Positions 9,425 to 55,949 of a stretch of DNA of 64,000 nucleotides are shown piece by piece. Position 1 is the stretch's first letter; each line of letters opens with the position of its first letter. The stretch covers positions 35,377-99,376 of the forward strand of contig CAYLIE010000006.1 in NCBI GenBank assembly GCA_964383935.1, read 5' to 3'. The position numbers and the translations under genes were made by a program. This DNA comes from an uncultured Anaerolineales bacterium. Lineage in GTDB: Bacteria > Chloroflexota > Anaerolineae > UBA7937. The notes under the pieces are model-generated. The model saw nothing but the letters and a program-made list of their open reading frames with translations, was not told the DNA's origin and made no database searches.

Positions 9425-10741
9425 TCAGGCACTCCCCGCTACGCGGACTTCCTCAAGGATCCCTGCGGGAAATGGATTGGGTTTTCCCCAATCGTAGCGG
9501 TTGACCGATGGTTCGGGCCAGATCGTGGGAAGTTCTCCCACTCGAACCGATACTCCGGTGCTCAAATCGAGCCCTTGGAGATACTTACGGAGAAGATTGA
9601 TAGCGCCATTGACGTCGGCATTGATGACTGCCCCACACTCCGAGCAGACGAGGAGGCCGCGATGAATACGACTGTTTCCATCTCGACAACCGCATGCACT
9701 GCACCTTCGACTGGTGTTCCGTTCGCTCACTTTGACAATTGTGATGCCGCTCAAATTTGCCTTGTAGGCCAGCATCTGAGCGAACCTATCGAAAGGCCAG
9801 GCGTGCAGCTTGAGGTTGCTAGCCCTCCCGTGATTGCGGGCCTCGCCGTTACTTTGCCATCGGATGCCCGAGAGATCGCCAAGAACAATGGTGCCTATAC
9901 CTTTCTCGATACCCATGTTCACAATGTCTCGGGAAATAGCGTGCAGGAACTGCTTCCGTCTCCCGCTTCTTTTCCGTTGCAGCTTCCTTTCACGCTTGGA
10001 TGCCGCTCGCTTTCTAGAGCCAGGCTTCCATCTGCTAGGCTTGCATTTGGCTATCTCCCTTACGAAGTAGTACTCCTGGGCCAAAAGACCTCGACCGCTG
10101 TAGAGGCCAGTGGTATCGTCGCTGTAGGCTATTGCTGCCAGATTGACGATGCCCACATCAATGGCCGCCACGCCTTCGCCTGGGGCTTCGTCAGCGCAGG
10201 GAACATCGCAGACGAGGTGGACTTCCCACCTGCCCTCTCGATGCACCAGCCTGACCAATTTGGGGTTGGAAATATCGGCAACTGGGGGCAGAGCCAGGTC
10301 GAGATAAAGATACTTCTCTCCAATCTCAGCGGTGACCGTCTCCCCCCTGGAAAGGCGGAGTCTAGTTCCTTCCAATTTGAAGCCCGATCTCTTGAAGGTA
10401 ACAGTATTCATCAACACCCGCCCCTTCCGCTTGCAATACCCGGGTGGGCGAGCTCCATAGTTGCCGTTCCTGCGCTGACTGAACCACGACTTATAGGCCT
10501 GCCAGAGCTCTTGGAGGACTGCTTGGGCAGTATGGGAAGGCAGGTGCTTGTACCAGTAGTGGGACTGAACCTCCTCCTGTACTTTGAAGGCATGTGGTAT
10601 TTTGCCTTTTCTTTCCCACACCTGGCGGGAGTGGTAAAGGGCCACGTTCCAGAGTTTGGAGCAGGCAAGACCCACTTTGTCGAGATCCCTCTCAACCTCA
10701 TCCAAGTTCTTGATTTTAGCAATGTAGGTGAGTTGTTGCAT
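9425..10741 (-). CDS. tnpB: TnpB (OrfB) RuvC-like RNA-guided endonuclease of IS200/IS605 family
   Basis: RuvC-I IDVGIVNLAA, zinc finger CSACG...CSECG, RuvC-III ADVNGAINL. Confidence 0.85.
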   Translation of the reverse strand: MQQLTYIAKIKNLDEVERDLDKVGLACSKLWNVALYHSRQVWERKGKIPHAFKVQEEVQSHYWYKHLPSHTAQAVLQELWQAYKSWFSQRRNGNYGARPPGYCKRKGRVLMNTVTFKRSGFKLEGTRLRLSRGETVTAEIGEKYLYLDLALPPVADISNPKLVRLVHREGRWEVHLVCDVPCADEAPGEGVAAIDVGIVNLAAIAYSDDTTGLYSGRGLLAQEYYFVREIAKCKPSRWKPGSRKRAASKRERKLQRKRSGRRKQFLHAISRDIVNMGIEKGIGTIVLGDLSGIRWQSNGEARNHGRASNLKLHAWPFDRFAQMLAYKANLSGITIVKVSERNTSRRCSACGCRDGNSRIHRGLLVCSECGAVINADVNGAINLLRKYLQGLDLSTGVSVRVGELPTIWPEPSVNRYDWGKPNPFPAGILEEVRVAGSA

Positions 10742-10759
10742 AGTTTGCTTTCCTTCGAG

Positions 10760-11164
10760 TTAATGCCCACTTTGGGCCTCGATGTATGCTTGAATAGTCT
10801 TGGTGGAGACATTGCCTGCTGTAGAATAGCAATAGGAGTGCGTCCAGAGGGAAGGGAGCCTCCTCAGGTGTGGGAACTCCTGTCTGAGAAGGCAGGAGCT
10901 TCGCCCCTTGACAGCTCTCACGATCCGGTAAGCGGGTTTCACAGGGTCGTCTCTTAGAAACAGATGAATGTGATCTGGACGAATAGCCAGTTCCAGAATT
11001 TCGCACTTGTTTTCGGCAGCTAGTTGCCGGATGATCTGTTCCAAGGGAGCAGCCACTCGACCCACCGGCACGGCCCTCCGATTTTTGGGACAAAAGATGA
11101 GATGGTAAACAACAAGATGGATATGATGACCGCTATTTTGATATTCCATCTGATATTTCCTCAC
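10760..11164 (-). CDS. tnpA: IS200/IS605 TnpA (Y1 HUH transposase)
   Basis: HIHLVV (HUH) and PDHIHLF motifs; ~134 aa. Confidence 0.85.
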   Translation of the reverse strand: MRKYQMEYQNSGHHIHLVVYHLIFCPKNRRAVPVGRVAAPLEQIIRQLAAENKCEILELAIRPDHIHLFLRDDPVKPAYRIVRAVKGRSSCLLRQEFPHLRRLPSLWTHSYCYSTAGNVSTKTIQAYIEAQSGH

Positions 11165-11372
11165 ACTGTTTTCTAGTATAGCACATTAGTTCTAAGAATG
11201 CAAGTCGATTTATGCGCCCTTACCTCCTAGCTTGGAGCCAGGAGCTTGCGGGCGCGGAAAGCGATCAAATCGGCTGGGGAGGAAGGGCGTTATATATGCA
11301 AACTCTCATGCTAACTGGACAAGGAGGCAGAAATCGAGTATTATTTAATCAGTTGGCAACCAGGGAGGTCTC

Positions 11373-11648
11373 TTGGCTACTACAGCATCGGCAAAGAAGA
11401 GGATCAGGTCCTCGGCCCGAAGGAGAGAGCGAAACCGGGTGTTCCGCTCTCGGGCTCGGACCTTCATAAAGAAAACGGATCGGCTCATCGCCGAGGGCAA
11501 ATTGGAGGAGGCCGCACAGACCGCACGGCAGGCTATGGGCGCCCTCGATAAGGCAGCAGTGAAAGGCGTCATCCATAAGAACAACGCTGCCCGCCGAAAA
11601 GCCCGCCTCATGAAGCGACTTAATCTAGCCCTCAAAAAAGCCGAATAA
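11373..11648 (+). CDS. rpsT: 30S ribosomal protein S20
   Basis: Basic 91-aa protein, [15 protein letters not shown]-terminus typical of bS20. Confidence 0.9.
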
Positions 11649-47148: not shown

Positions 47149-47245
47149 CCCACTCTTCCCAAAAATGGACATGCGAGGAGGGGAGATTTGTAATATACTA
47201 TATTTGGACGGTTTGTTTTCGATTCACAGAAGAAGGTGGGAATTA

Positions 47246-48031
47246 ATGAAGGGGCTTTTCTTCCCCATCTTGATAAGTTTGCTACTAGCAGCCTGTGGTA
47301 CCACTCCCACCTCCGATGTAGAGGCAACTATCCAAGTTGGCATTGCAGCCACACTGACCGCACAGCCGACTGATACGCCTGTGCCGACGCCGAAAGCAAC
47401 TCCCACACCAACAGAGATACCAACCCAGACGCCAACCCCAAAGCCATTCCCTCCTTTTCATCGTCCATCGCCGGGAAAAGAAACCTCTCCCTCCACTTAC
47501 TCCTTAGAAACCTACGAAGGTCAATGGTTCTCATTTCAGTATCCACCCAATGCTCGGGTGGAAAACGTCGCCCCCTTTCCTCCCGAAACAAGCGAGATTC
47601 ACGTTATTGGCCCCATAGTTTGGGTCAAACCAGGTGATGCGGACTGGGGTTGGAACGGCCCAGCCTACAAGTTGATCATACTGACCTACGAGAACCCTGA
47701 TGGGCTTGATTCAGAATCGTGGGCGCGGGACTATATCCTTAATACTTGGAAGGAGGCCAGAGAACGGAACGAGCCATGGGGGTCGTTGCCAGTGTCTGAG
47801 GAGGGAGTGATAGAAGAAGATAGCGTGGGAAGTTCCGTTGTAGCTGGTCAGCCTGCATTCTGGGTTAATTACTTCGCTTTTGACTCTTCCTATCCCACCT
47901 TCTACCTGACCGGCAATGGCCAAGTAGTAGCACTGAGTTTCAACGATTACCCTTTGGAGAACCAGCCGTTGGCAACGATGCAACAGGACGTTTATGCGTT
48001 GATCATCGACACTTTCCGTTTTAACAAGTAG
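47246..48031 (+). CDS. Lipoprotein with Thr/Pro-rich linker, unknown function
   Basis: Lipobox LLAACG. Confidence 0.45.
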   Translation: MKGLFFPILISLLLAACGTTPTSDVEATIQVGIAATLTAQPTDTPVPTPKATPTPTEIPTQTPTPKPFPPFHRPSPGKETSPSTYSLETYEGQWFSFQYPPNARVENVAPFPPETSEIHVIGPIVWVKPGDADWGWNGPAYKLIILTYENPDGLDSESWARDYILNTWKEARERNEPWGSLPVSEEGVIEEDSVGSSVVAGQPAFWVNYFAFDSSYPTFYLTGNGQVVALSFNDYPLENQPLATMQQDVYALIIDTFRFNK

Positions 48032-48103: not shown

Positions 48104-50668
48104 TCACGTCACTCGCGGCACCCGGGCCAAGATCTCGGAGACCACCTCGTAGTTAATGGTGCCTAACTTATCCGCCACCTCTTCAGCGGTGATCCTCTCT
48201 TCCCCTTGCTGGCCGATAAGAACCACCTCATCCCCCTGACGGACCCCGGGGATATCGGTGACATCGATCATACTCATATCCATACATACCCGCCCCACCA
48301 CCGGAGCCCGCTGGCCCCGCACCAAGACCTCGCCCCAGGTTCTGGGCCCCCTGCGGAAGCCATCGGCGTAGCCTACGGGGATGACGGCGATGGAGGAAGC
48401 TCTCTCGGTGCGATAGGTACAGCCATAACTTATGCAACTCCCTTCCGGCAGCCGTTTCACCTGGGCGATCTGGGTCTTGAAAGAGAGAACCGGTCTAAAA
48501 CTATCAGGACAACGAACCTCTGGGGAAGGGTCGAGCCCATAGATCGCTATCCCCGGCCGCACCAGGTTGAAGTAGGATTCAGGGAGAGTGAAGATGGCAG
48601 CGCTATGAGCCGCATGGATGAGGGGGATATGGATGTCGTTAGCCTCCAGCTCCCTCACTACCCCTTCGAAGACCTCCAGTTGGCGGAGCGTGTACTCCTT
48701 CCCCCAGCCGGGGATGCCGTGGGCATCCTCCGCGTCGGCGATGGCGAAATGGGTAAAGATCCCCTCGACCACAAGGTTGGGTAACCCTTGGAGCGCCTGC
48801 ACGAAGGGGAGAACGTCAGAGGGAAGGTGGCCCAGCCGGCCCATGCCCGTATCCACCTTGATGTGCACCCACACCTGAGAGTTGAGAGCCACGGCAGCGC
48901 GGGAGAAAGCCCTGGCCACATCTAGAGAGAAGACGGTGGCTGTGACATCGTGAAGGACGATATCTCTAGCCTGCCAAGCAGGGGTATAGCCCAGAATGAT
49001 GATGGGAGCGGAAATGCCAGCCTTCCTGAGGGCTACCGCCTCGCCGAGGCAAGCCACCCCCAGCATAGTGGCCCCGTTGGCCAGAGCGGTGCGCGCTACC
49101 TTGACCGCGCCATGGCCGTAAGCGTCAGCCTTGAGGGTGACGATGATCCCCACCCTCTCCCCCACTATCCTCTTGATCTCCCGCACATTATAGGCTAGAG
49201 CCCCCAGATCGATCTCTACCCAGGTAGGGCGATCGGGAGCGATGATGTGAATCCGCTTCCAAGCCGGGCTCTGCCGGACGAGGAGGTTCTCTGCCTGCGA
49301 GGGGTCGGCCAGTAGTTTCTCCACCACCCTCTCCATGCGAGCCTCCATCGACCCCTTCACCAGCACTATATCGCCGGGGGTTATCCTTTCGGCTATGCTC
49401 CGGACCGCCTCCTCCGTAGTGTAGGTCACAAAGATCCGCTCCTCTGTCAAGCCGCATCTTCCCGCCTCGTCGGCCACGATAGTGGCCCGCTCACCCTTGG
49501 TGACCAGATAATCCACCACCTGGGCGGCCCGGCGCCCCACCTCCCTATGTCCCTCCTCCTCGTAGGCCCCCAGTTGCAACATATCTCCCAAGATGGCAAC
49601 CCTTTCTCCTCCCTCCATTTGGGCTAAGAGGTCGAGGGCTGCGAGGGTCGAGGTCGGGTTAGCGCTGTAACTGTCGTCCAAGAGCAGACTGCCGTTTATC
49701 CCCTCCAAAGGCTTCAAGCGCCCCCTAATAGGCTTGAGTTCTTCCAGGCTTTGAGCTGCCTCCTGCAGGGAGAGACCGTAGAGAGTTCCCACCCCTATGG
49801 CCGCAAGAGCGGTGTAGACGTTATGGCTACCCAAAAGAGCAAGCCGGACTTGAGCACGCTCATCTTGATAGCGGACGAAAAATCGCACACCCTCACGATT
49901 GGTGGCGATTTCGCAGGCGTAGAGATCGGCCTTGGGGTCCGTCCCGAAGGTGAGCACCTGGGCTTTGGTCCTGCCGGCCATGGCTCGAACCCGGGGGGCA
50001 TCGAAGTTGAGGAGAGCGTAACCCTCCTCAGGCAAGGCTTCGATCAGCCTCCCCTTCTCCCGGGCTATATTCTCCAGGCTGCCCAGATACTCCAGATGAG
50101 CGGCGTTCACGCTCGTCACCACTCCTATGCGGGGCGAGGTCATCTGAGCCAACTCGGCGATCTCGTTGAAACTATCGCAGGCCATCTCCAAGACCGCGAT
50201 TTTGTGCCCCGGGCGAAGCCTCCCCAAAGCGATGGGCAACCCATACCGCCCGTTATAGTTGGCGTGGTTCCTGAAGACGGGAAAAACCTTTTCCAGAACC
50301 TTGGCGATAGCCTCCTTGGTGCTGGTCTTCCCAGTGCTCCCCGTTACCCCGATGACCTCAGGGGCGTATTTTTTGATTATATATTCGCCCCAATGGCGAA
50401 GGGCTTGTTGGGTATCGGGCACCATCACACAGGTCACACGGTGAGGAGCGAGGTCTATCTCCCGCTCGCAGAGCACCCCTGTCGCCCCATCGCGACAGGC
50501 CTCAGCGATATAATCGTGGCCGTCGCCCTTCTCCGTCTTCACCGCCAAGAAGAGTTCTCCTGGCTGGAGGATGCGGGAGTCATAGCAGAAGTCGTCGAAC
50601 TCCTGAGCGAACACAGGGCCATAGGTCCGACCACCAGTGGCCGCGAGGATATCAGACAGGTAGATCAT
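48104..50668 (-). CDS. murF: Bifunctional UDP-MurNAc-tripeptide:D-Ala-D-Ala ligase (MurF) / alanine racemase (Alr) fusion
   Basis: N-terminal ~460 aa has Mur ligase motifs (GVTGSTGKTSTKE). C-terminal ~390 aa is Alr (RPTWVEIDLGALAYNVREIK...TLKADAYGHG). Confidence 0.85.
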   Translation of the reverse strand: MIYLSDILAATGGRTYGPVFAQEFDDFCYDSRILQPGELFLAVKTEKGDGHDYIAEACRDGATGVLCEREIDLAPHRVTCVMVPDTQQALRHWGEYIIKKYAPEVIGVTGSTGKTSTKEAIAKVLEKVFPVFRNHANYNGRYGLPIALGRLRPGHKIAVLEMACDSFNEIAELAQMTSPRIGVVTSVNAAHLEYLGSLENIAREKGRLIEALPEEGYALLNFDAPRVRAMAGRTKAQVLTFGTDPKADLYACEIATNREGVRFFVRYQDERAQVRLALLGSHNVYTALAAIGVGTLYGLSLQEAAQSLEELKPIRGRLKPLEGINGSLLLDDSYSANPTSTLAALDLLAQMEGGERVAILGDMLQLGAYEEEGHREVGRRAAQVVDYLVTKGERATIVADEAGRCGLTEERIFVTYTTEEAVRSIAERITPGDIVLVKGSMEARMERVVEKLLADPSQAENLLVRQSPAWKRIHIIAPDRPTWVEIDLGALAYNVREIKRIVGERVGIIVTLKADAYGHGAVKVARTALANGATMLGVACLGEAVALRKAGISAPIIILGYTPAWQARDIVLHDVTATVFSLDVARAFSRAAVALNSQVWVHIKVDTGMGRLGHLPSDVLPFVQALQGLPNLVVEGIFTHFAIADAEDAHGIPGWGKEYTLRQLEVFEGVVRELEANDIHIPLIHAAHSAAIFTLPESYFNLVRPGIAIYGLDPSPEVRCPDSFRPVLSFKTQIAQVKRLPEGSCISYGCTYRTERASSIAVIPVGYADGFRRGPRTWGEVLVRGQRAPVVGRVCMDMSMIDVTDIPGVRQGDEVVLIGQQGEERITAEEVADKLGTINYEVVSEILARVPRVT

Positions 50669-50689
50669 GAAAAACAGCCTCTCAAGAGT

Positions 50690-50875
50690 CTAGCCCCTTC
50701 GGTAGAGAAGCCCGCCGATTATGACCGCCACCGCTCCCACCAGGCTGCCCCCCATCTGCTGGTAGCCGAATCCCGGGTCACGCCCCAACCCTATCATATC
50801 CGCGCTCACTGATATAAGAAGAAGGGCGATGCCCCCTACGAGGAGAAGCAAGCCTATGAGCCTGGTGGTACTCAT
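50690..50875 (-). CDS. Small two-TM membrane protein
   Basis: ORF only. Confidence 0.3.
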   Translation of the reverse strand: MSTTRLIGLLLLVGGIALLLISVSADMIGLGRDPGFGYQQMGGSLVGAVAVIIGGLLYRRG

Positions 50876-50996
50876 GCTATCCCTCCTAATGGCCGTACAA
50901 ACATTCTAACACTCTGGCCCCCAGGGCGCAACCTTGCCTATTGAGAGCATAATTGCTAGAATTTAGTTCAACAAGGTTGAGGGTTAAGAGAGTACC

Positions 50997-52040
50997 ATGA
51001 TGCGGGTGGGAGTGCTATTTGGAGGAGCCTCCTCAGAACGAGAGGCCTCGCTGGCTAGCGGGCGACAGGTTTGCTTTCAACTAAACCCCCAGAAATATAG
51101 TTGTCTTCCCCTCTTCGTGGACACAGAGAACAGGTTCTGGGAACTTCCCAAGAAACTTATCGTTCAGAACACCACTTCTGATATCATCGCCCGCTTGGAG
51201 AGCGAAGCGAAACGCATCCACTACGAGGATCTGAAGGATCTCATCGATTTCGCTTTCATCGCCCTCCATGGCAAATACGGCGATGATGGCTGCATCCAAG
51301 GACTCCTCGAACTTTTGGGGATACCCTATACCGGCTCTGGGGTCCTGGCCTCGGCCCTCTGCATGGACAAAACCATGGCCCACCGGGGGCTCAAAGCCTC
51401 CCAGTTGGAAGTGGCCCAGGAGATGGTGGTCCAAGAGACCGATTGGGAACGAGACCCGCGAGGAACGCAAGATGAGATCGTCGAGGAGATCGGTCTCCCC
51501 TGCGTGGTCAAACCCAGCCGCGAAGGCTCAAGCATCGGGGTGTCGGTGGTAGAGAAGGAGAAAGATATCGGCCGGGCTCTGGAAATAGCCTTCGAGTGGG
51601 ATAACTCGGCCCTCATAGAAGAGAAACTGGATGGCCTGGAGTTCTCTTGCATCGTCTTGGGGAATGAGGAACTTTGGCCCATGCCTCCCACAGAGACAGT
51701 GGCTACCCATGAGTATCTAACCTATGACGACAAATATATGCCCGGCCGCTCCCAGAAGATCACCCCGGCCCGGGTATCGGAGGAGACGATCAGGCATATA
51801 CAAGAAGAGGTGATGAAAGCCTATAAAGTCTTGGGCTTCAAGAACTATGGCCGCCTGGACGGCTTCCTCCTAGAGGATGGCCGGATACTCCTCACCGATC
51901 CCAACACCTCTTCCGGGATGGCCCCTTCATCCTTCATGTTTCACCAAGCGGCGGAGATAGGGCTGAACGCTACCATGCTCTTCGATAGGATAATCGAGCT
52001 GGCCCTGGAGGCCCACGAGAATAAAAGAGGGCCGCTATAG
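50997..52040 (+). CDS. ddl: D-alanine--D-alanine ligase (paralog 1)
   Basis: VGVLFGGASSEREASLASG N-terminus, ATP-grasp motifs. Confidence 0.85.
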   Translation: MMRVGVLFGGASSEREASLASGRQVCFQLNPQKYSCLPLFVDTENRFWELPKKLIVQNTTSDIIARLESEAKRIHYEDLKDLIDFAFIALHGKYGDDGCIQGLLELLGIPYTGSGVLASALCMDKTMAHRGLKASQLEVAQEMVVQETDWERDPRGTQDEIVEEIGLPCVVKPSREGSSIGVSVVEKEKDIGRALEIAFEWDNSALIEEKLDGLEFSCIVLGNEELWPMPPTETVATHEYLTYDDKYMPGRSQKITPARVSEETIRHIQEEVMKAYKVLGFKNYGRLDGFLLEDGRILLTDPNTSSGMAPSSFMFHQAAEIGLNATMLFDRIIELALEAHENKRGPL

Positions 52041-52085
52041 AGAGACGAAAGATTATGTATAGAGAGCCAGGGAGGGAGAGAAAAA

Positions 52086-53637
52086 ATGCCTAAGAGTGGT
52101 GTAAACATCCGAAGACTTGCTCAAAATATTGCGGACCAATATCCTTTCGAACCCGAGGTCGCTACCTTGATCGAATTAGTAGCGAATGCACTTGACGCCA
52201 AAGCTCGTGTAATCAACATCCAGATTTCAGATGCAATCCTCCGAGTAATCGACGACGGTGTTGGAATGACACGAAAGCAGTTCAAGGAGTACCACGATTT
52301 CGCTACGACCACTAAGGAGAGGGGTGCCGGAATCGGCTTTGCAGGACAGGGCGCCAAACTGGCACTAAACTTCTGCGATAAGATCATCAGTGAGACTCGC
52401 AGCAAGAACTATCATGACACAACTATATGGAGATTGCAGGATGATGATGCTCCATATCATTACATTGAGGAGAGAACACTATCAGAGACGGGAACGCGAG
52501 TCTCTCTATATCTGGAAGAGGATCGCAAGTCATTCTATACACCCGCTCTAGTGAAGCAAGTCCTCGAAGAGCATTATTTTCCACTACTTGATCGGCAATT
52601 ACTCTATGTCTATACCGGAGAGCGTCCCCTTTTGAAAGGTGGAAAGGGCAGGCTTGAACGCTATCGAGAACTGTACAGGAAAGGCCTGAAATTCATCGTG
52701 AACGGCTCGGTGATCACTCTTGACCCTATCGAAGCGACAGTGGAGCATCAGAAAGAGTTCTCCATTCTCCGCTACAGAAAAGCACAGGGGTGGGGATTCT
52801 TTGGGCTAGCAGAACAGGCCCTCCCCGAACATCTTCAAGGGGTGGGGATAGCAACATACGGTAAGGTCATAGAGCGAACCTGGTTCAAAAAAGAGCCACG
52901 CCATAAGAATCGAATTTTCGGATGGATGGAGGCGCCATATCTCATCAAGGCTGTTACAACGGACAAGTGCCGATTCCAGAGAGGAAATAAGAATTGGGAG
53001 AGTTTCTTTCGCAAGGCGCAAAGGGAATTCTCAACATGGCTGGAGGAAGCAGGCCTGATGGAAAGGCCCGAACCTCGACCACTCGCCTTTACAGAACTGG
53101 AACGTGAAATCAACCGGATACTGAAACAGATTCCATCACTTACCTTCTTCGGAACTCGGACGCTGGCAAAGGTTGCGATTCCCGACGAACTTGGCGAAGA
53201 AAGACTCGTAGGCAAGGGAACACAAAAGGTCCAGGGCACTAAAGGTCCAGGGCACTAAGGGTGGCGAGGGTGAGGGAAAAGGCGTTGATATCTATCCAGG
53301 GCCAGAGGAAGGACTTGCACCCAGTCTCGAGCTTGGAACCGACAAACCAGCCAAAGAACATCAGCGGGTTATTCGTGGAGGCATTCGTCTTGCTTTTGAG
53401 CAAAGACCGGACCTCTCCAGCGAAGGGCGGTTTGATGGCGAAACCGTCTTTATCAATGAGGCTCATTCTGCATACGCCAAAGCTTCGGGAGACAAGCAGG
53501 CAGCAAACTATCACGTTCTTAAGACCACTGCTCTAGAACTCACAAGATTTGCGATGGAACGAGATCCCGAACCATCATATCAGAAAGCCTTCGATCTTAT
53601 GGGCCAGTTTTTCACACTTTGGGGAGAGCAACGATGA
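52086..53637 (+). pseudogene. GHKL/Bergerat-fold (HATPase_c, MORC/MutL-like) ATPase, ~511 aa if intact; frameshifted by a 16-bp tandem duplication (annotated ORF stops at 53258)
   Basis: ELVANALDA (N-box) and DDGVGM (G1) motifs. Removing 53242-53257 restores an open frame ending at the TGA at 53635-53637, giving ...GTKGGEGEGKGVDIYPGPEEG...LWGEQR. Confidence 0.6.
53226..53257 (+). repeat. Perfect 16-bp tandem duplication (aaggtccagggcacta x2) creating a frameshift
   Basis: Read directly from the sequence. Confidence 0.9.
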
Positions 53638-54128
53638 CACAACTCAAAATCGGTTTCAAGGTTCAAAAGATCGATTCACCTGAGGGCAAGGAAACCTTCA
53701 CGGCTACCGTCCCGTTAGCTTCTATATTCGAAAAAGAGATGGTCGCTCATGACATGAAAACATCTCTCAAGGCCCTAGAGCACGACTATACAGCTCTAGT
53801 TGCTGACCTATTAGATATCGCAAGTGCGCTAAGAAGCCGGAGCGCTTCAGAACCGCGAGTCCTCCTGTACTGGCAGTTTGGCGACAGGATACAACAATAT
53901 GAAAATAAATATGAAAATAGCCTCTTCTTCCTGGACGGAATGACCAAGTATCTAGTAAGAGACGTTGGCGTCTCAGACAAGATGATCAGTCGGTGCCGGC
54001 GCTTCCGTAGACTTTACCCGGATAGGGATAGAATCGATCCCAATCTTTCGTTTGATCGCTACGTGTCTAGTTTTGAAGGTGGATATATATCGGCTAAACG
54101 CAAGCGAAAGCGTGGTAGCAATGTCTAA
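53634..54128 (+). CDS. Hypothetical 165-aa protein, translationally coupled to the GHKL ATPase (ATGA) and overlapping the ddl-2 start (ATGTCTAA)
   Basis: ORF with start/stop overlaps on both sides; low GC like the ATPase gene. Confidence 0.45.
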   Translation: MTQLKIGFKVQKIDSPEGKETFTATVPLASIFEKEMVAHDMKTSLKALEHDYTALVADLLDIASALRSRSASEPRVLLYWQFGDRIQQYENKYENSLFFLDGMTKYLVRDVGVSDKMISRCRRFRRLYPDRDRIDPNLSFDRYVSSFEGGYISAKRKRKRGSNV

Positions 54129-55179
54129 AGCCAGGCTCCTCCGCGTAGGCGTCATCATGGGCGGCATCTCATCGGAGCGGGAGATATCGCTGGAAAGCGG
54201 AAGGAACATCTTCAACAACCTCGACCCCACCAAGTACGAAGGCATCCCCATCTTCCAGGACAGCAAAGGGCGACTTTGGGAGATGACCCTCTCCCTTTTG
54301 GTCCAGAACACCACCGCTGATATCGAGGCCAGACTAGAAAAAGAAGCTGCCCGCATCCCCTACGAGAGGTTGAAGGAACTGGTCGATTTCGTCTACATCG
54401 GACTCCACGGCAAGTATGGAGAGGATGGCTGCCTCCAGGGCCTTCTGGAACTCCTCAATATCCCCTATACCGGCTCCGGGGTCCTGGCCTCGGCTATCGG
54501 GATGGACAAACATATGACCCGCCGCCTCCTCGTCGCCGCCGGCATCCGAGTCCCAAGATACCTGACCATCTCCCAGAAAGCGTGGCAAGAGCGAAGAGAG
54601 GAGATAGAGAAGAATATCGAGGAGACCCTGGGCTACCCCTGCGTGGTGAAGCCCACGCGAGAGGGGTGCAGCACCGGTCTCTCCGTGGTACGCGAAGGGG
54701 AAGGGTTAGCCCCGGCTATGGAAAAAGCCTTCCAGTGGGACACCACCTGTTTAGTGGAGGAGTTGCTGAGGGGCACGGAGATCACCTGCGGAGTGATAGG
54801 CAATGAAAACCCCATCGCCTTTCTCCCTACCGAGACACCTCCGCGCGGCGATTTCCTCACCGTGGAGGAGAAGTTCTTGCCCGGTGAGGGAGAGAATATC
54901 ACCCCCGCTCGCCTCCCCCCAGAGATGATAGAGAAGGTACAGAAGGTAATGGTTGAGGCCTACAAAGCCTTGGGGACAAAAGTCTATGCCCGCCTCGACG
55001 GCTTCGTGATCGATGGGGAGGTGATAGTCACCGAGACCAACACCCTCCCCGGCATGACCCCCTCCACCTGTATCTTCCACCAGGCGGCCGAAGAGGGGAT
55101 GAGCCCCATGGACTTGGTCACCAAAGTAATCGAGCTATCCTTGGAAGCTCATAGCCGAAAGAAAGGGCCGCTCGATTGA
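54121..55179 (+). CDS. ddl: D-alanine--D-alanine ligase (paralog 2)
   Basis: VGVIMGGISSEREISLESG; ~60-65% identical to paralog 1 in the blocks compared by eye. Confidence 0.85.
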   Translation: MSKARLLRVGVIMGGISSEREISLESGRNIFNNLDPTKYEGIPIFQDSKGRLWEMTLSLLVQNTTADIEARLEKEAARIPYERLKELVDFVYIGLHGKYGEDGCLQGLLELLNIPYTGSGVLASAIGMDKHMTRRLLVAAGIRVPRYLTISQKAWQERREEIEKNIEETLGYPCVVKPTREGCSTGLSVVREGEGLAPAMEKAFQWDTTCLVEELLRGTEITCGVIGNENPIAFLPTETPPRGDFLTVEEKFLPGEGENITPARLPPEMIEKVQKVMVEAYKALGTKVYARLDGFVIDGEVIVTETNTLPGMTPSTCIFHQAAEEGMSPMDLVTKVIELSLEAHSRKKGPLD

Positions 55180-55235
55180 GCGGCCAACCAGAGAGGCATC
55201 GATCCAGCAGGCAAATGCCTACTGGCCCTGCTATC

Positions 55236-55949
55236 TCAATACCCCTTCAACGCCTCCTTCTGCGCCACCAGCAACTCCTCTATGCCCTTCTGGGCCAGGT
55301 CCAAGAGCCCATCCATCATCTGGCGAGAGAAAGCCCCACCTTCTCCGGTGCCCTGCACCTCCACATACTCCCCTTCCGCGGTCATCACCACGTTAAAATC
55401 TACCTGTGCTTGATGATCCTCCTCATAGGTGAGATCTAAGAGGGGCTCGTCCTGCAACACTCCCACGCTGATGGCCGCCACTTGGGTCTTGAGCACCCTG
55501 GCCGGGAGGAGCCCCCCTTTTATCAGCCTGCGCAGGGCTATGGCCAGGGCCACGTAGCCCCCAGTGATAGCGGCGGTGCGCGTCCCCCCATCGGCCTGGA
55601 GGACATCGCAATCTATGATCACCGTCCTCTCTCCCAAGAGACGGAGGTCCACGGCCACGCGCAAGGCTCGGCCGATGAGACGGCGGATCTCCAGCGTGCG
55701 GCCGCCCAAGCCCCGGGTCTCCCGGGGGGTGCGCTGGCGAGTGGAGCGGGGCAACATGGCGTACTCGCCGGTGACCCACCCCTGCGCTTGTTCCTTCAAC
55801 CAACGGGGTACCGTCTCCTCCACGCTAGCAGCACAGATGACGCGGGTCTCCCCCACCTCTATGAGCGCTGACCCCTCCGGATAGTCTAGATACCCTGGGG
55901 TGATCTTCACCGGTCGCATCTCATCGTATTTCCGACCATCGAAACGCAT
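55236..55949 (-). CDS. rph: Ribonuclease PH
   Basis: RPVKITPGYLDYPEGSALIEVGETRVIC..., 237 aa. Confidence 0.9.
   Translation of the reverse strand: MRFDGRKYDEMRPVKITPGYLDYPEGSALIEVGETRVICAASVEETVPRWLKEQAQGWVTGEYAMLPRSTRQRTPRETRGLGGRTLEIRRLIGRALRVAVDLRLLGERTVIIDCDVLQADGGTRTAAITGGYVALAIALRRLIKGGLLPARVLKTQVAAISVGVLQDEPLLDLTYEEDHQAQVDFNVVMTAEGEYVEVQGTGEGGAFSRQMMDGLLDLAQKGIEELLVAQKEALKGY

Follow-up and report, generated by a model that had tools for sequence, protein, structure and literature searches.

A low-GC gene pair encoding a predicted MORC-like ATPase, here frameshifted, and a small partner between tandem ddl genes of an uncultured Anaerolineales bacterium

Within a 64,000-nucleotide (nt) stretch of DNA from an uncultured Anaerolineales bacterium (contig CAYLIE010000006.1; the whole stretch is hereafter the window), we analyzed a two-gene cassette that separates two D-alanine–D-alanine ligase genes, ddl1 and ddl2. 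The cassette comprises a gene for an ATPase of the GHKL (Bergerat-fold) superfamily, disrupted in this genome by a short tandem duplication, and a gene for a small partner protein. An earlier note, drawn from the sequence alone, had proposed that this pair was a horizontally acquired and undescribed system. We judge the chances to be about even that the cassette is a horizontally acquired module in a slot between the ddl genes and, in this genome, the decaying copy of an uncharacterized paraMORC-type conflict (defense) module directed at DNA.

Gene layout and base composition of the ddl1–ddl2 interval

All genes of the interval lie on the forward (+) strand. The left border of the insertion is ddl1 (50997..52040), whose 347-amino-acid (aa) product matches the Pfam Dala_Dala_lig_N/C models and TIGR01205 above cut-off; the right border is ddl2 (54121..55179; 352 aa). 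The two are genuine Ddl paralogues that share 51% aa identity. Behind ddl1, a 45-nt spacer (52041..52085) reads as containing a Shine-Dalgarno-like GGGAGGGAGAG ahead of the ATPase start. The 5' part of the ATPase gene (52086..53258) encodes a truncated product of 390 aa with predicted GHKL (Bergerat) and S5-fold transducer domains and includes, near its end, a perfect 16-bp tandem duplication (53225..53256) in a Gly-rich linker predicted to be disordered. The 3' part (53257..53637) continues in the +1 frame without a usable start and encodes a predicted zincin-like C-terminal domain that lacks HExxH. The partner gene (53634..54128) is intact and specifies 164 aa, one fewer than the earlier note had counted; the protein is predicted to be helical and helix-turn-helix (HTH)-like. 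Its stop codon overlaps the start of ddl2, as had been noted (ATGTCTAA at 54121-54128). Upstream of ddl1, a sigma-70-like site (50934..50962, +; 9/12 hexamer matches) is a weak candidate for a single promoter of ddl1-ATPase-partner-ddl2; it is the sole such match in 50600-55400, where 3.0 would be expected by chance.

The GC minimum of the whole window is a 2088-nt stretch beginning at 52001 (48.7%; window mean 57.2%, standard deviation (SD) 2.1). In a sliding-window profile with 300-nt windows, GC content is 46-53% across approximately 52000-54100 and approximately 55-62% in the surroundings. Codon usage deviates likewise: GC content at third codon positions (GC3) is 0.50 in the 5' part of the ATPase gene, 0.42 in its 3' part and 0.49 in the partner gene, the lowest of all open reading frames (ORFs) and 3.5 to 5.1 SDs below the mean of the 40 other ORFs in the window (mean 0.688, SD 0.053; z = -3.5 to -5.1), with ddl1 at 0.68 and ddl2 at 0.75. 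The compositional dip that the earlier note described over 52041-54128 is thus real, but its size had been overstated: 35-45% GC against 63% had been estimated by hand, and the measured values are 46-53% in 300-nt windows against 55-58% in the flanking ddl genes.

A 16-bp duplication frameshifts the ATPase gene

The ATPase gene, previously taken to be one ORF, is frameshifted. The ORF from 52086 ends after 390 aa at a TAA (53256-53258), and the remainder of the gene is open only in the +1 frame, to a TGA at 53635-53637, with its first in-frame start codon at 53554. The frameshift is caused by the perfect tandem duplication of AAAGGTCCAGGGCACT at 53225-53256. Removal of one 16-bp copy in silico restored a 511-aa protein that has homologues of 509-511 aa at 100% coverage and 94, 85, 81 and 78% identity; when the window was aligned with four homologous loci, all without the duplication, these 16 bp were the sole indel in that part of the alignment. 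The duplication also occurs in two Logan assemblies (L009, SRR14802574; L010, SRR30905122) that match the window at 100% identity over 4.4 and 3.2 kb, and gene callers give the 390-aa product in both. At the level of assemblies, the lesion is reproduced in two further sequencing runs.

The linker that carries the duplication (aa 377-404) has a predicted local distance difference test (pLDDT) score below 50 in an AlphaFold2 (AF2) model of the protein, and the entire C-terminal domain beyond it is lost. The inactivation appears to be recent, because the out-of-frame 3' part still has a ratio of nonsynonymous to synonymous divergence (dN/dS) of 0.25-0.35 relative to intact alleles. Intact 511-aa alleles are present at the same ddl site in the relative L011 (93% nt identity). 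Programmed frameshifting at the duplication was considered improbable from a reading of the sequence: a slippery motif is missing, CAC-TAA does not resemble the prfB context, and the duplication is simply absent from sister alleles. Most likely, the ATPase copy in this genome is a recently inactivated relic, a pseudogene, and should be annotated as such. Since the truncated ATPase lacks its C-terminal domain, the module in the window is probably non-functional. The ATGA that joins the two cassette genes (53634-53637) is present as the earlier note stated; the translational coupling ascribed to it holds only for the intact allele seen elsewhere, since the gene is frameshifted here.

Two further proteins of the ATPase family are truncated independently. 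P0112 has a frameshifted tail after approximately aa 373, in the same linker as the lesion in the window, and P0117 diverges after approximately aa 338. These cases suggest recurrent decay, for which the Gly-rich linker is possibly a weak spot.

The ATPase combines GHKL and S5 domains with a degenerate zincin-like domain

The GHKL motifs ELVANALDA and DDGVGM that the earlier note had recognized are confirmed. The only Pfam matches are HATPase_c_3 (45.1 bits; cut-off 25) and HATPase_c (34 bits; cut-off 26.4), at aa 28-145. In an alignment of 109 family sequences, E30, N34, D37, D56, G58, G60, G84 and G89 are invariant and T137 is nearly so; the protein possesses ATP-binding motifs I-IV and is a member of the GHKL superfamily. 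K294, within the motif TTDKCRFQ, is likewise invariant in the 109 sequences. The AF2 model (mean pLDDT 82.6) has MORC3 and MORC2 as its best structural matches, and residues 1 to approximately 350 are modeled as a GHKL+S5 "MORC-like" ATPase module in the domain order of MORC and paraMORC proteins. The family consensus GxxI(C/A)TYGKVI fits the MORC S5 signature GhXhhpXXRhl, as given in PMC2292703, save for an invariant lysine (K260) at the position of the arginine.

After the flexible linker, the C-terminal domain has a predicted zincin-like fold, as in the Wss1/Spartan DNA-protein-crosslink proteases. The HExxH metal motif of zincin metalloproteases (Wss1/SprT/YbeY-like) is not present in the 109-sequence alignment, and membership among these proteases, defined by HExxH or a YbeY-type His triad on the active-site helix, was rejected, so we regard the domain as non-proteolytic; it probably serves in dimerization or partner binding. 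Its conserved residues are N452, H455, Y458, Y470, H471 and K474.

A housekeeping identity such as MutL, which the earlier note had raised as an alternative, was not found among NCBIfam models, where scores lie far under the cut-offs. The best MutL model, TIGR00585, gave 27.5 bits against a cut-off of 180, Pfam detected no MutL_C domain, and the C-terminal domain is zincin-like. By sequence, the GHKL domain is nearest to the N-domains of the Hsp90 family (sequence matches in the PDB, E 1e-9, aa 8-200); Hsp90/HtpG identity was rejected because the HtpG models scored 24-25 bits against cut-offs of 371-455 and the match is to the N-domain only.

The partner is a remote relative of DUF1016_N

The AF2 model of the partner (pLDDT 85) begins with a beta-hairpin, followed by helices, and has weak fold matches to ParB and TetR. 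Pfam gives a DUF1016_N match below threshold (17 bits against 32.8; E 0.006), as it does for 26 of 45 family members, and the PADLOC DUF1016-type candidate PDC-S02 matches with a best E of 3e-6. A search of the PDB by sequence returned only noise, and no STAS domain was detected in Pfam and family-member profile searches. When 1.84 billion representative proteins were searched exhaustively with a profile, only 135 clusters were recovered; among them is P0376, a true DUF1016_N protein with a fused staphylococcal-nuclease (SNase) domain. On account of the consistent sub-threshold DUF1016_N and PDC-S02 matches together with P0376, the partner is by sequence distantly related to the helical domain normally found N-terminal to nuclease domains, but stands alone. 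Membership among the DUF1016/YhcG nucleases (PDC-S02) was rejected: the DUF1016_N match is under the gathering threshold, and the protein, of 164 aa, does not extend past the helical domain to a PD-(D/E)XK nuclease domain.

The ddl1-ddl2 spacer is a slot with variable cargo

The tandem ddl1-ddl2 arrangement is ancestral in the clade and is found in dozens of metagenomic relatives. The slot is empty in L034 and L036, the closest relatives by Ddl sequence (71-74% aa identity), where a spacer of 40-56 nt separates the two genes; the empty site that the earlier note had suggested looking for is therefore found in these more distant relatives. Congeneric contigs (L118-L120), which share the sigma-factor/murF-alr/ddl/rph/Band-7 synteny with the window and have flanks of 89-93% nt identity, have an unrelated gene for a 187-aa multi-pass membrane protein in the slot, and L118 is homologous to the window up to 52041 and again from 54136. 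In at least nine other lineages, the slot holds a gene for an approximately 260-aa, beta-rich protein that has a signal peptide and ends in F. The spacer thus presents as a cargo slot with four states (window 52041-54135; L034, L036, L038-L054 and L118-L120).

Among relatives with the pair itself, L011 (93% nt identity overall) has it intact at the same site, with flanks that align to the 3' end of ddl1 and the 5' end of ddl2. In L007, the pair is probably in the same slot, judging from the identity of the cassette; the contig is short and reaches neither ddl gene. The comparison of the window with L011 is a mosaic: the ATPase genes are 96-97% identical in nt sequence (dS 0.06-0.10), and the partner and both ddl flanks are approximately 85% identical (partner dS 0.50, omega 0.15). 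The pattern suggests a cassette older than the separation of the two lineages, with a later exchange of the ATPase allele by recombination. L001 and L008 share DNA with the window (76-78% identity) over 52085/52086-54091 only, that is, from the ATPase start codon to inside the 3' end of the partner gene, and their contexts are unrelated.

As the earlier note had supposed, the cassette came into the ddl operon from outside: congeners have other cargo, more distant relatives have an empty slot, and the copy in L001 lies elsewhere. With other cargo in congeners and an empty slot in distant relatives, we take the cassette to be an insertion unrelated to cell-wall synthesis. At its borders there are no flanking direct or inverted repeats of note, and the cassette contains no recombinase gene; a transposon or integrative island, for which terminal repeats, a target-site duplication and an integrase or transposase would be expected, was rejected.

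Three other features near the cassette were recorded. Between ddl2 and rph, the congeners have an extra gene for a 506-aa PQQ-repeat beta-propeller protein (window 55175-55235 against L118 8766-10286); its absence from the window is a second presence/absence polymorphism beside the cassette. Divergent from ddl1, an 854-aa ORF (48104-50668, - strand) joins MurF (Mur ligase domains) and a complete alanine racemase in one protein, and the fusion recurs in congeners L118 and L119. The ORF with the second-lowest GC content (47165-48031, +; 50.5% GC, GC3 0.53) encodes a putative lipoprotein with a Pro/Thr-rich linker and may likewise have been acquired or be evolving fast.

The pair is strictly co-encoded and patchily distributed

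A scan of 185,579 species-representative genomes identified 22 loci, most of them in Chloroflexota (Anaerolineae, Dehalococcoidales) and the others in Bacteroidota, Thermotogota (Fervidobacterium), Atribacteria, WOR-3, Coatesbacteria, Clostridia and Aenigmatarchaeota; protein-level matches add Caldarchaeum, Omnitrophica and Acidobacteria. The two families are of similar size (ATPase, 160 clusters; partner, 192). Wherever a locus leaves room for it, the partner lies directly downstream of the ATPase (20 distinct loci), usually with overlapping stop and start codons, and the neighborhood check that the earlier note had proposed shows the pair kept as a unit in approximately 20 loci other than the window. 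In most loci, the GC content of the pair is below that of the host. No relatives of the pair were found in IMG/VR, INPHARED phages or PLSDB plasmids, and a phage or plasmid origin was rejected on that basis.

Some of the contexts are defense islands. L008 has genes for an AlwI-type restriction endonuclease (REase), a methyltransferase and GmrSD_N; L001 and L012 have a PD-Lambda-4_A-like gene, a type IIG restriction-modification (R-M) gene, a serine recombinase gene and an S24 repressor gene, the two-gene copy of L001 (78% identical to that of the window) lying between the type IIG gene and the recombinase gene. L019 has a type IIG gene and a gene associated with prokaryotic Argonaute, and in L117 an MNT/HEPN pair is nearby. 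A third gene follows the pair in certain loci: it encodes a ribbon-helix-helix (RHH)+Mrr_N protein in five (L015, L016, L019, L020 and L029, of which L015 and L016 are near-duplicates) and a BsaWI-like REase in L013, and in L021 the partner itself is fused to an AlkZ-like DNA glycosylase. No third gene is conserved upstream across the loci, and none is universal downstream. A 230-248-aa protein of the Dehalococcoidia-type loci was rejected as a third component, as it goes with polX and not with the pair. Matches to mad2, mad3 and mad8 (MADS) among the neighbors were also set aside; the mad2 matches that were traced are methyltransferase-domain cross-matches from type IIG enzymes.

Several loci deserve separate mention. 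In L003, L014, L114 and L116, the pair has approximately 40% GC in hosts of approximately 55%, and the order prs-secA-pair-polX-valS is kept at SecA divergences of 63-74%; this composition gap despite apparent long residence could reflect repeated insertion at a hotspot or a constraint on composition. A 566-582-aa protein with no Pfam or PADLOC match is encoded directly 3' of the pair in L022-L024, L027, L028 and L031 (e.g., L023:12049-13752), and in L025 its homologue lies approximately 1.5 kb downstream, past a serine dehydratase gene; in this uvrA-linked clade it could be a clade-specific third component or a mere syntenic neighbor. L033, a contig of a Chloroflexi metagenome-assembled genome (MAG), has two divergent ATPase paralogues approximately 9 kb apart (9-611, -; 10001-11443, +). 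L015 (a Bacteroidota MAG) and L016 (a Fervidobacterium MAG) come from one study and are assigned to different phyla; their loci are closely related, with identical gene order around the pair and, beside it, a small ORF of 98% aa identity, which points either to very recent transfer or to a binning error.

Proposed function and alternatives

We favor a restriction-like, DNA-targeting module because the optional neighbors of the pair read or cut DNA (Mrr_N, BsaWI-like, AlkZ-like), its spread is patchy and prone to horizontal transfer, its GC content is low, and its nearest relatives lie in defense islands. In such a module, the small partner would bind DNA as the likely recognition or adaptor subunit and would recruit or gate the ATPase. 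By analogy to MORC, MutL and other GHL ATPases (PMC2292703), the ATPase would be a constitutive dimer through its C-terminal domain, and ATP binding would close its N-terminal gate, with K294 sensing the gamma-phosphate. It would then clamp or remodel the bound DNA and, where a nuclease or other effector is encoded next door, license that effector. In the window, the intact partner gene would simply have stayed wedged in the ddl operon after truncation of the ATPase.

A number of observations weigh against this reading. Neither core protein has a recognizable nuclease or other effector domain, neither has a family match in PADLOC-DB v2 or PHROGs, and the version in the window has no third gene. 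The match to the MORC S5 signature is approximate, with K replacing R. Of the non-redundant contexts, more than half are of the housekeeping type (uvrA, secA/polX, gatB, ddl): seven Anaerolineae loci lie approximately 1.2 kb downstream of uvrA with host-like GC content and a divergence that tracks UvrA (ATPase 65-96% against UvrA 78-97%), and secA and polX flank the pair in four Dehalococcoidia-type loci. Vertical inheritance as stable as this is not usual in defense genes. A defense role is suggested by context and domain content, and loss of function of the 390-aa ATPase is assumed from the truncated sequence.

The linkage to uvrA and polX and the vertical inheritance in Anaerolineae are why we retain DNA repair or genome maintenance as a serious, if rather unlikely, rival, in which a MutL/MORC-like ATPase matchmaker and a lesion-DNA-binding partner would work with repair enzymes. 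The Dehalococcoidia-type loci keep the pair not only beside the gene for a PolX-family polymerase but also near that for an HhH-GPD glycosylase, and to these may be added the AlkZ-like fusion and the fold that the C-terminal domain shares with Wss1/Spartan. Yet the fusion is a single observation, the protease-like domain has no HExxH, and the approximately 1.2 kb that part uvrA from the pair hold ORFs on the opposite strand. The family, at 22 of 185,579 species including archaea, is also rarer and patchier than a core repair function should be; the relatives closest to the window are in R-M/recombinase islands, the pair is below host GC in most loci, and the independent truncations in the window, P0112 and P0117 are as expected of dispensable accessory genes. 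Weaker than DNA repair, and in our view improbable, is a sensor-regulator role on the analogy of CapK-CapS, whereby the GHKL protein, as ATPase or kinase, would modify or remodel a small DNA-binding repressor and so switch on adjacent cargo. The resemblance of the partner to small HTH-type DNA binders, the variable genes downstream of the pair (for the Mrr_N protein, the BsaWI-like REase and proteins without an assignment) and the overlap of the partner stop with the ddl2 start would suit such a switch; many loci, however, have only housekeeping genes downstream, and the ATPase is of MORC type, with an S5 transducer and the conserved lysine typical of ATP-hydrolyzing clamps, whereas CapK is described as an anti-sigma-factor-type kinase acting with a STAS-domain protein (PMC13373217).

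A role in the cell wall tied to the ddl genes, such as regulating or chaperoning D-Ala-D-Ala ligase, is suggested by the ddl1-X-Y-ddl2 embedding with its overlapping or short junctions, by the one promoter-like site upstream of ddl1 and by the proximity of the GHKL domain to Hsp90-family N-domains. On the sequence comparisons it is essentially excluded: no ddl gene lies near the pair in any of approximately 20 other loci, the pair is missing from relatives that share the ddl tandem, other lineages fill the slot with unrelated cargo, and here the ATPase is broken while both ddl genes are intact. Finally, the pair might be a self-sufficient, nuclease-free prokaryotic MORC system, in which the partner would mark invading or aberrant DNA and the ATPase would clamp and compact it, silencing rather than cutting. 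We consider this doubtful, at about the level of the sensor-regulator role; if true, the pair would parallel, in bacteria and archaea, the silencing of transposons by eukaryotic MORC proteins, with the neighboring nucleases, the Mrr_N reader and the AlkZ-like glycosylase as optional additions.

Should the intact pair be active, as the DNA-targeting module that we favor or otherwise, it would be a compact two-gene MORC-type module in which an ATPase that ends in a degenerate zincin-like domain has an unusual, obligate partner of stand-alone DUF1016_N type. The module is found mainly in uncultured Chloroflexota and scattered phyla and is absent from the phage, plasmid and defense-system libraries searched. 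If active, it would offer a biochemically tractable prokaryotic relative of MORC/SMCHD1, whose DNA clamping matters for eukaryotic gene silencing, and a function for a DUF1016_N-type domain. The locus itself illustrates how a ddl1-ddl2 spacer can act as a swap-in cargo slot, with four states in related lineages, and how accessory modules decay, through a 16-bp duplication here and independent truncations elsewhere.

Comparison with known systems

The pair matches no named defense system in PADLOC-DB v2.0.0, in agreement with the earlier note. The only match of the ATPase there is to TmtA (E 8e-5, 65 of 1552 model positions), and the partner gives the weak PDC-S02 matches described above; NCBIfam has nothing specific for either protein. 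We found no description of the pair in the searchable literature on GHKL/MORC/DUF1016 defense pairs and no model of it in Pfam, NCBIfam, PHROGs or PADLOC-DB v2. The suggestion that the system is undescribed stands to that extent; it does not extend to the ATPase class, since paraMORC ATPases of GHKL+S5 architecture were already described from R-M-type contexts in 2008 (Iyer, Abhiman & Aravind, PMC2292703), and for that reason the pair is not categorically new.

Unlike MutL, the ATPase lacks the MutL_C dimerization/endonuclease domain, and its family is not universally distributed. The partner resembles the DUF1016/YhcG nucleases (PDC-S02) in its sub-threshold matches and through its remote relative P0376, a true DUF1016_N protein with a nuclease; it differs from them in consisting of the N-terminal helical domain alone, with no nuclease domain, and in always occurring with the ATPase. 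GHKL domains are also found in Shedu I-D, Tiamat and other defense proteins (PMC12137116). Like Shedu type I-D VcSduA (PMC12137116) and Tiamat TmtA, the ATPase has an N-terminal GHKL domain with a proposed control of a DNA-directed activity. In VcSduA, however, this domain is fused to a DUF4263 nuclease in one polypeptide (PMC12137116), whereas the pair has neither DUF4263 nor another nuclease, and membership in Shedu I-D was rejected on domain content; the TmtA models exceed 1500 positions, of which the ATPase matches approximately 65 residues in the Bergerat fold only. CapK-CapS, as presented in PMC13373217, is likewise a two-gene unit of a GHKL-superfamily protein and a small DNA-binding partner beside variable immune genes. 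Membership in that system was rejected because the ATPase bears an S5 domain and is closest to MORCs, and because the partner is DUF1016_N-like without a STAS match, CapS being described there as a STAS-domain repressor.

The closest likeness in domain architecture is to the prokaryotic MORC and paraMORC proteins as portrayed in PMC2292703. The ATPase shares with them an N-terminal GHKL domain with all ATP-binding motifs, an S5 fold with a conserved basic residue and a family-specific C-terminal extension; both are distributed widely but sporadically in bacteria and archaea, and some copies adjoin R-M genes and nucleases, as the pair does in L008, L012, L013 and L019. The pair differs in lacking a recurrent superfamily II helicase partner and in having an obligate small DUF1016_N-like partner, of which sections 4-5 of that source make no mention. 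In place of the restriction-endonuclease-fold nuclease, TIR or HxH domains that PMC2292703 gives for paraMORC3-5, its C-terminal domain is degenerate and zincin-like, and, unlike paraMORCs, many of its copies reside in housekeeping neighborhoods.

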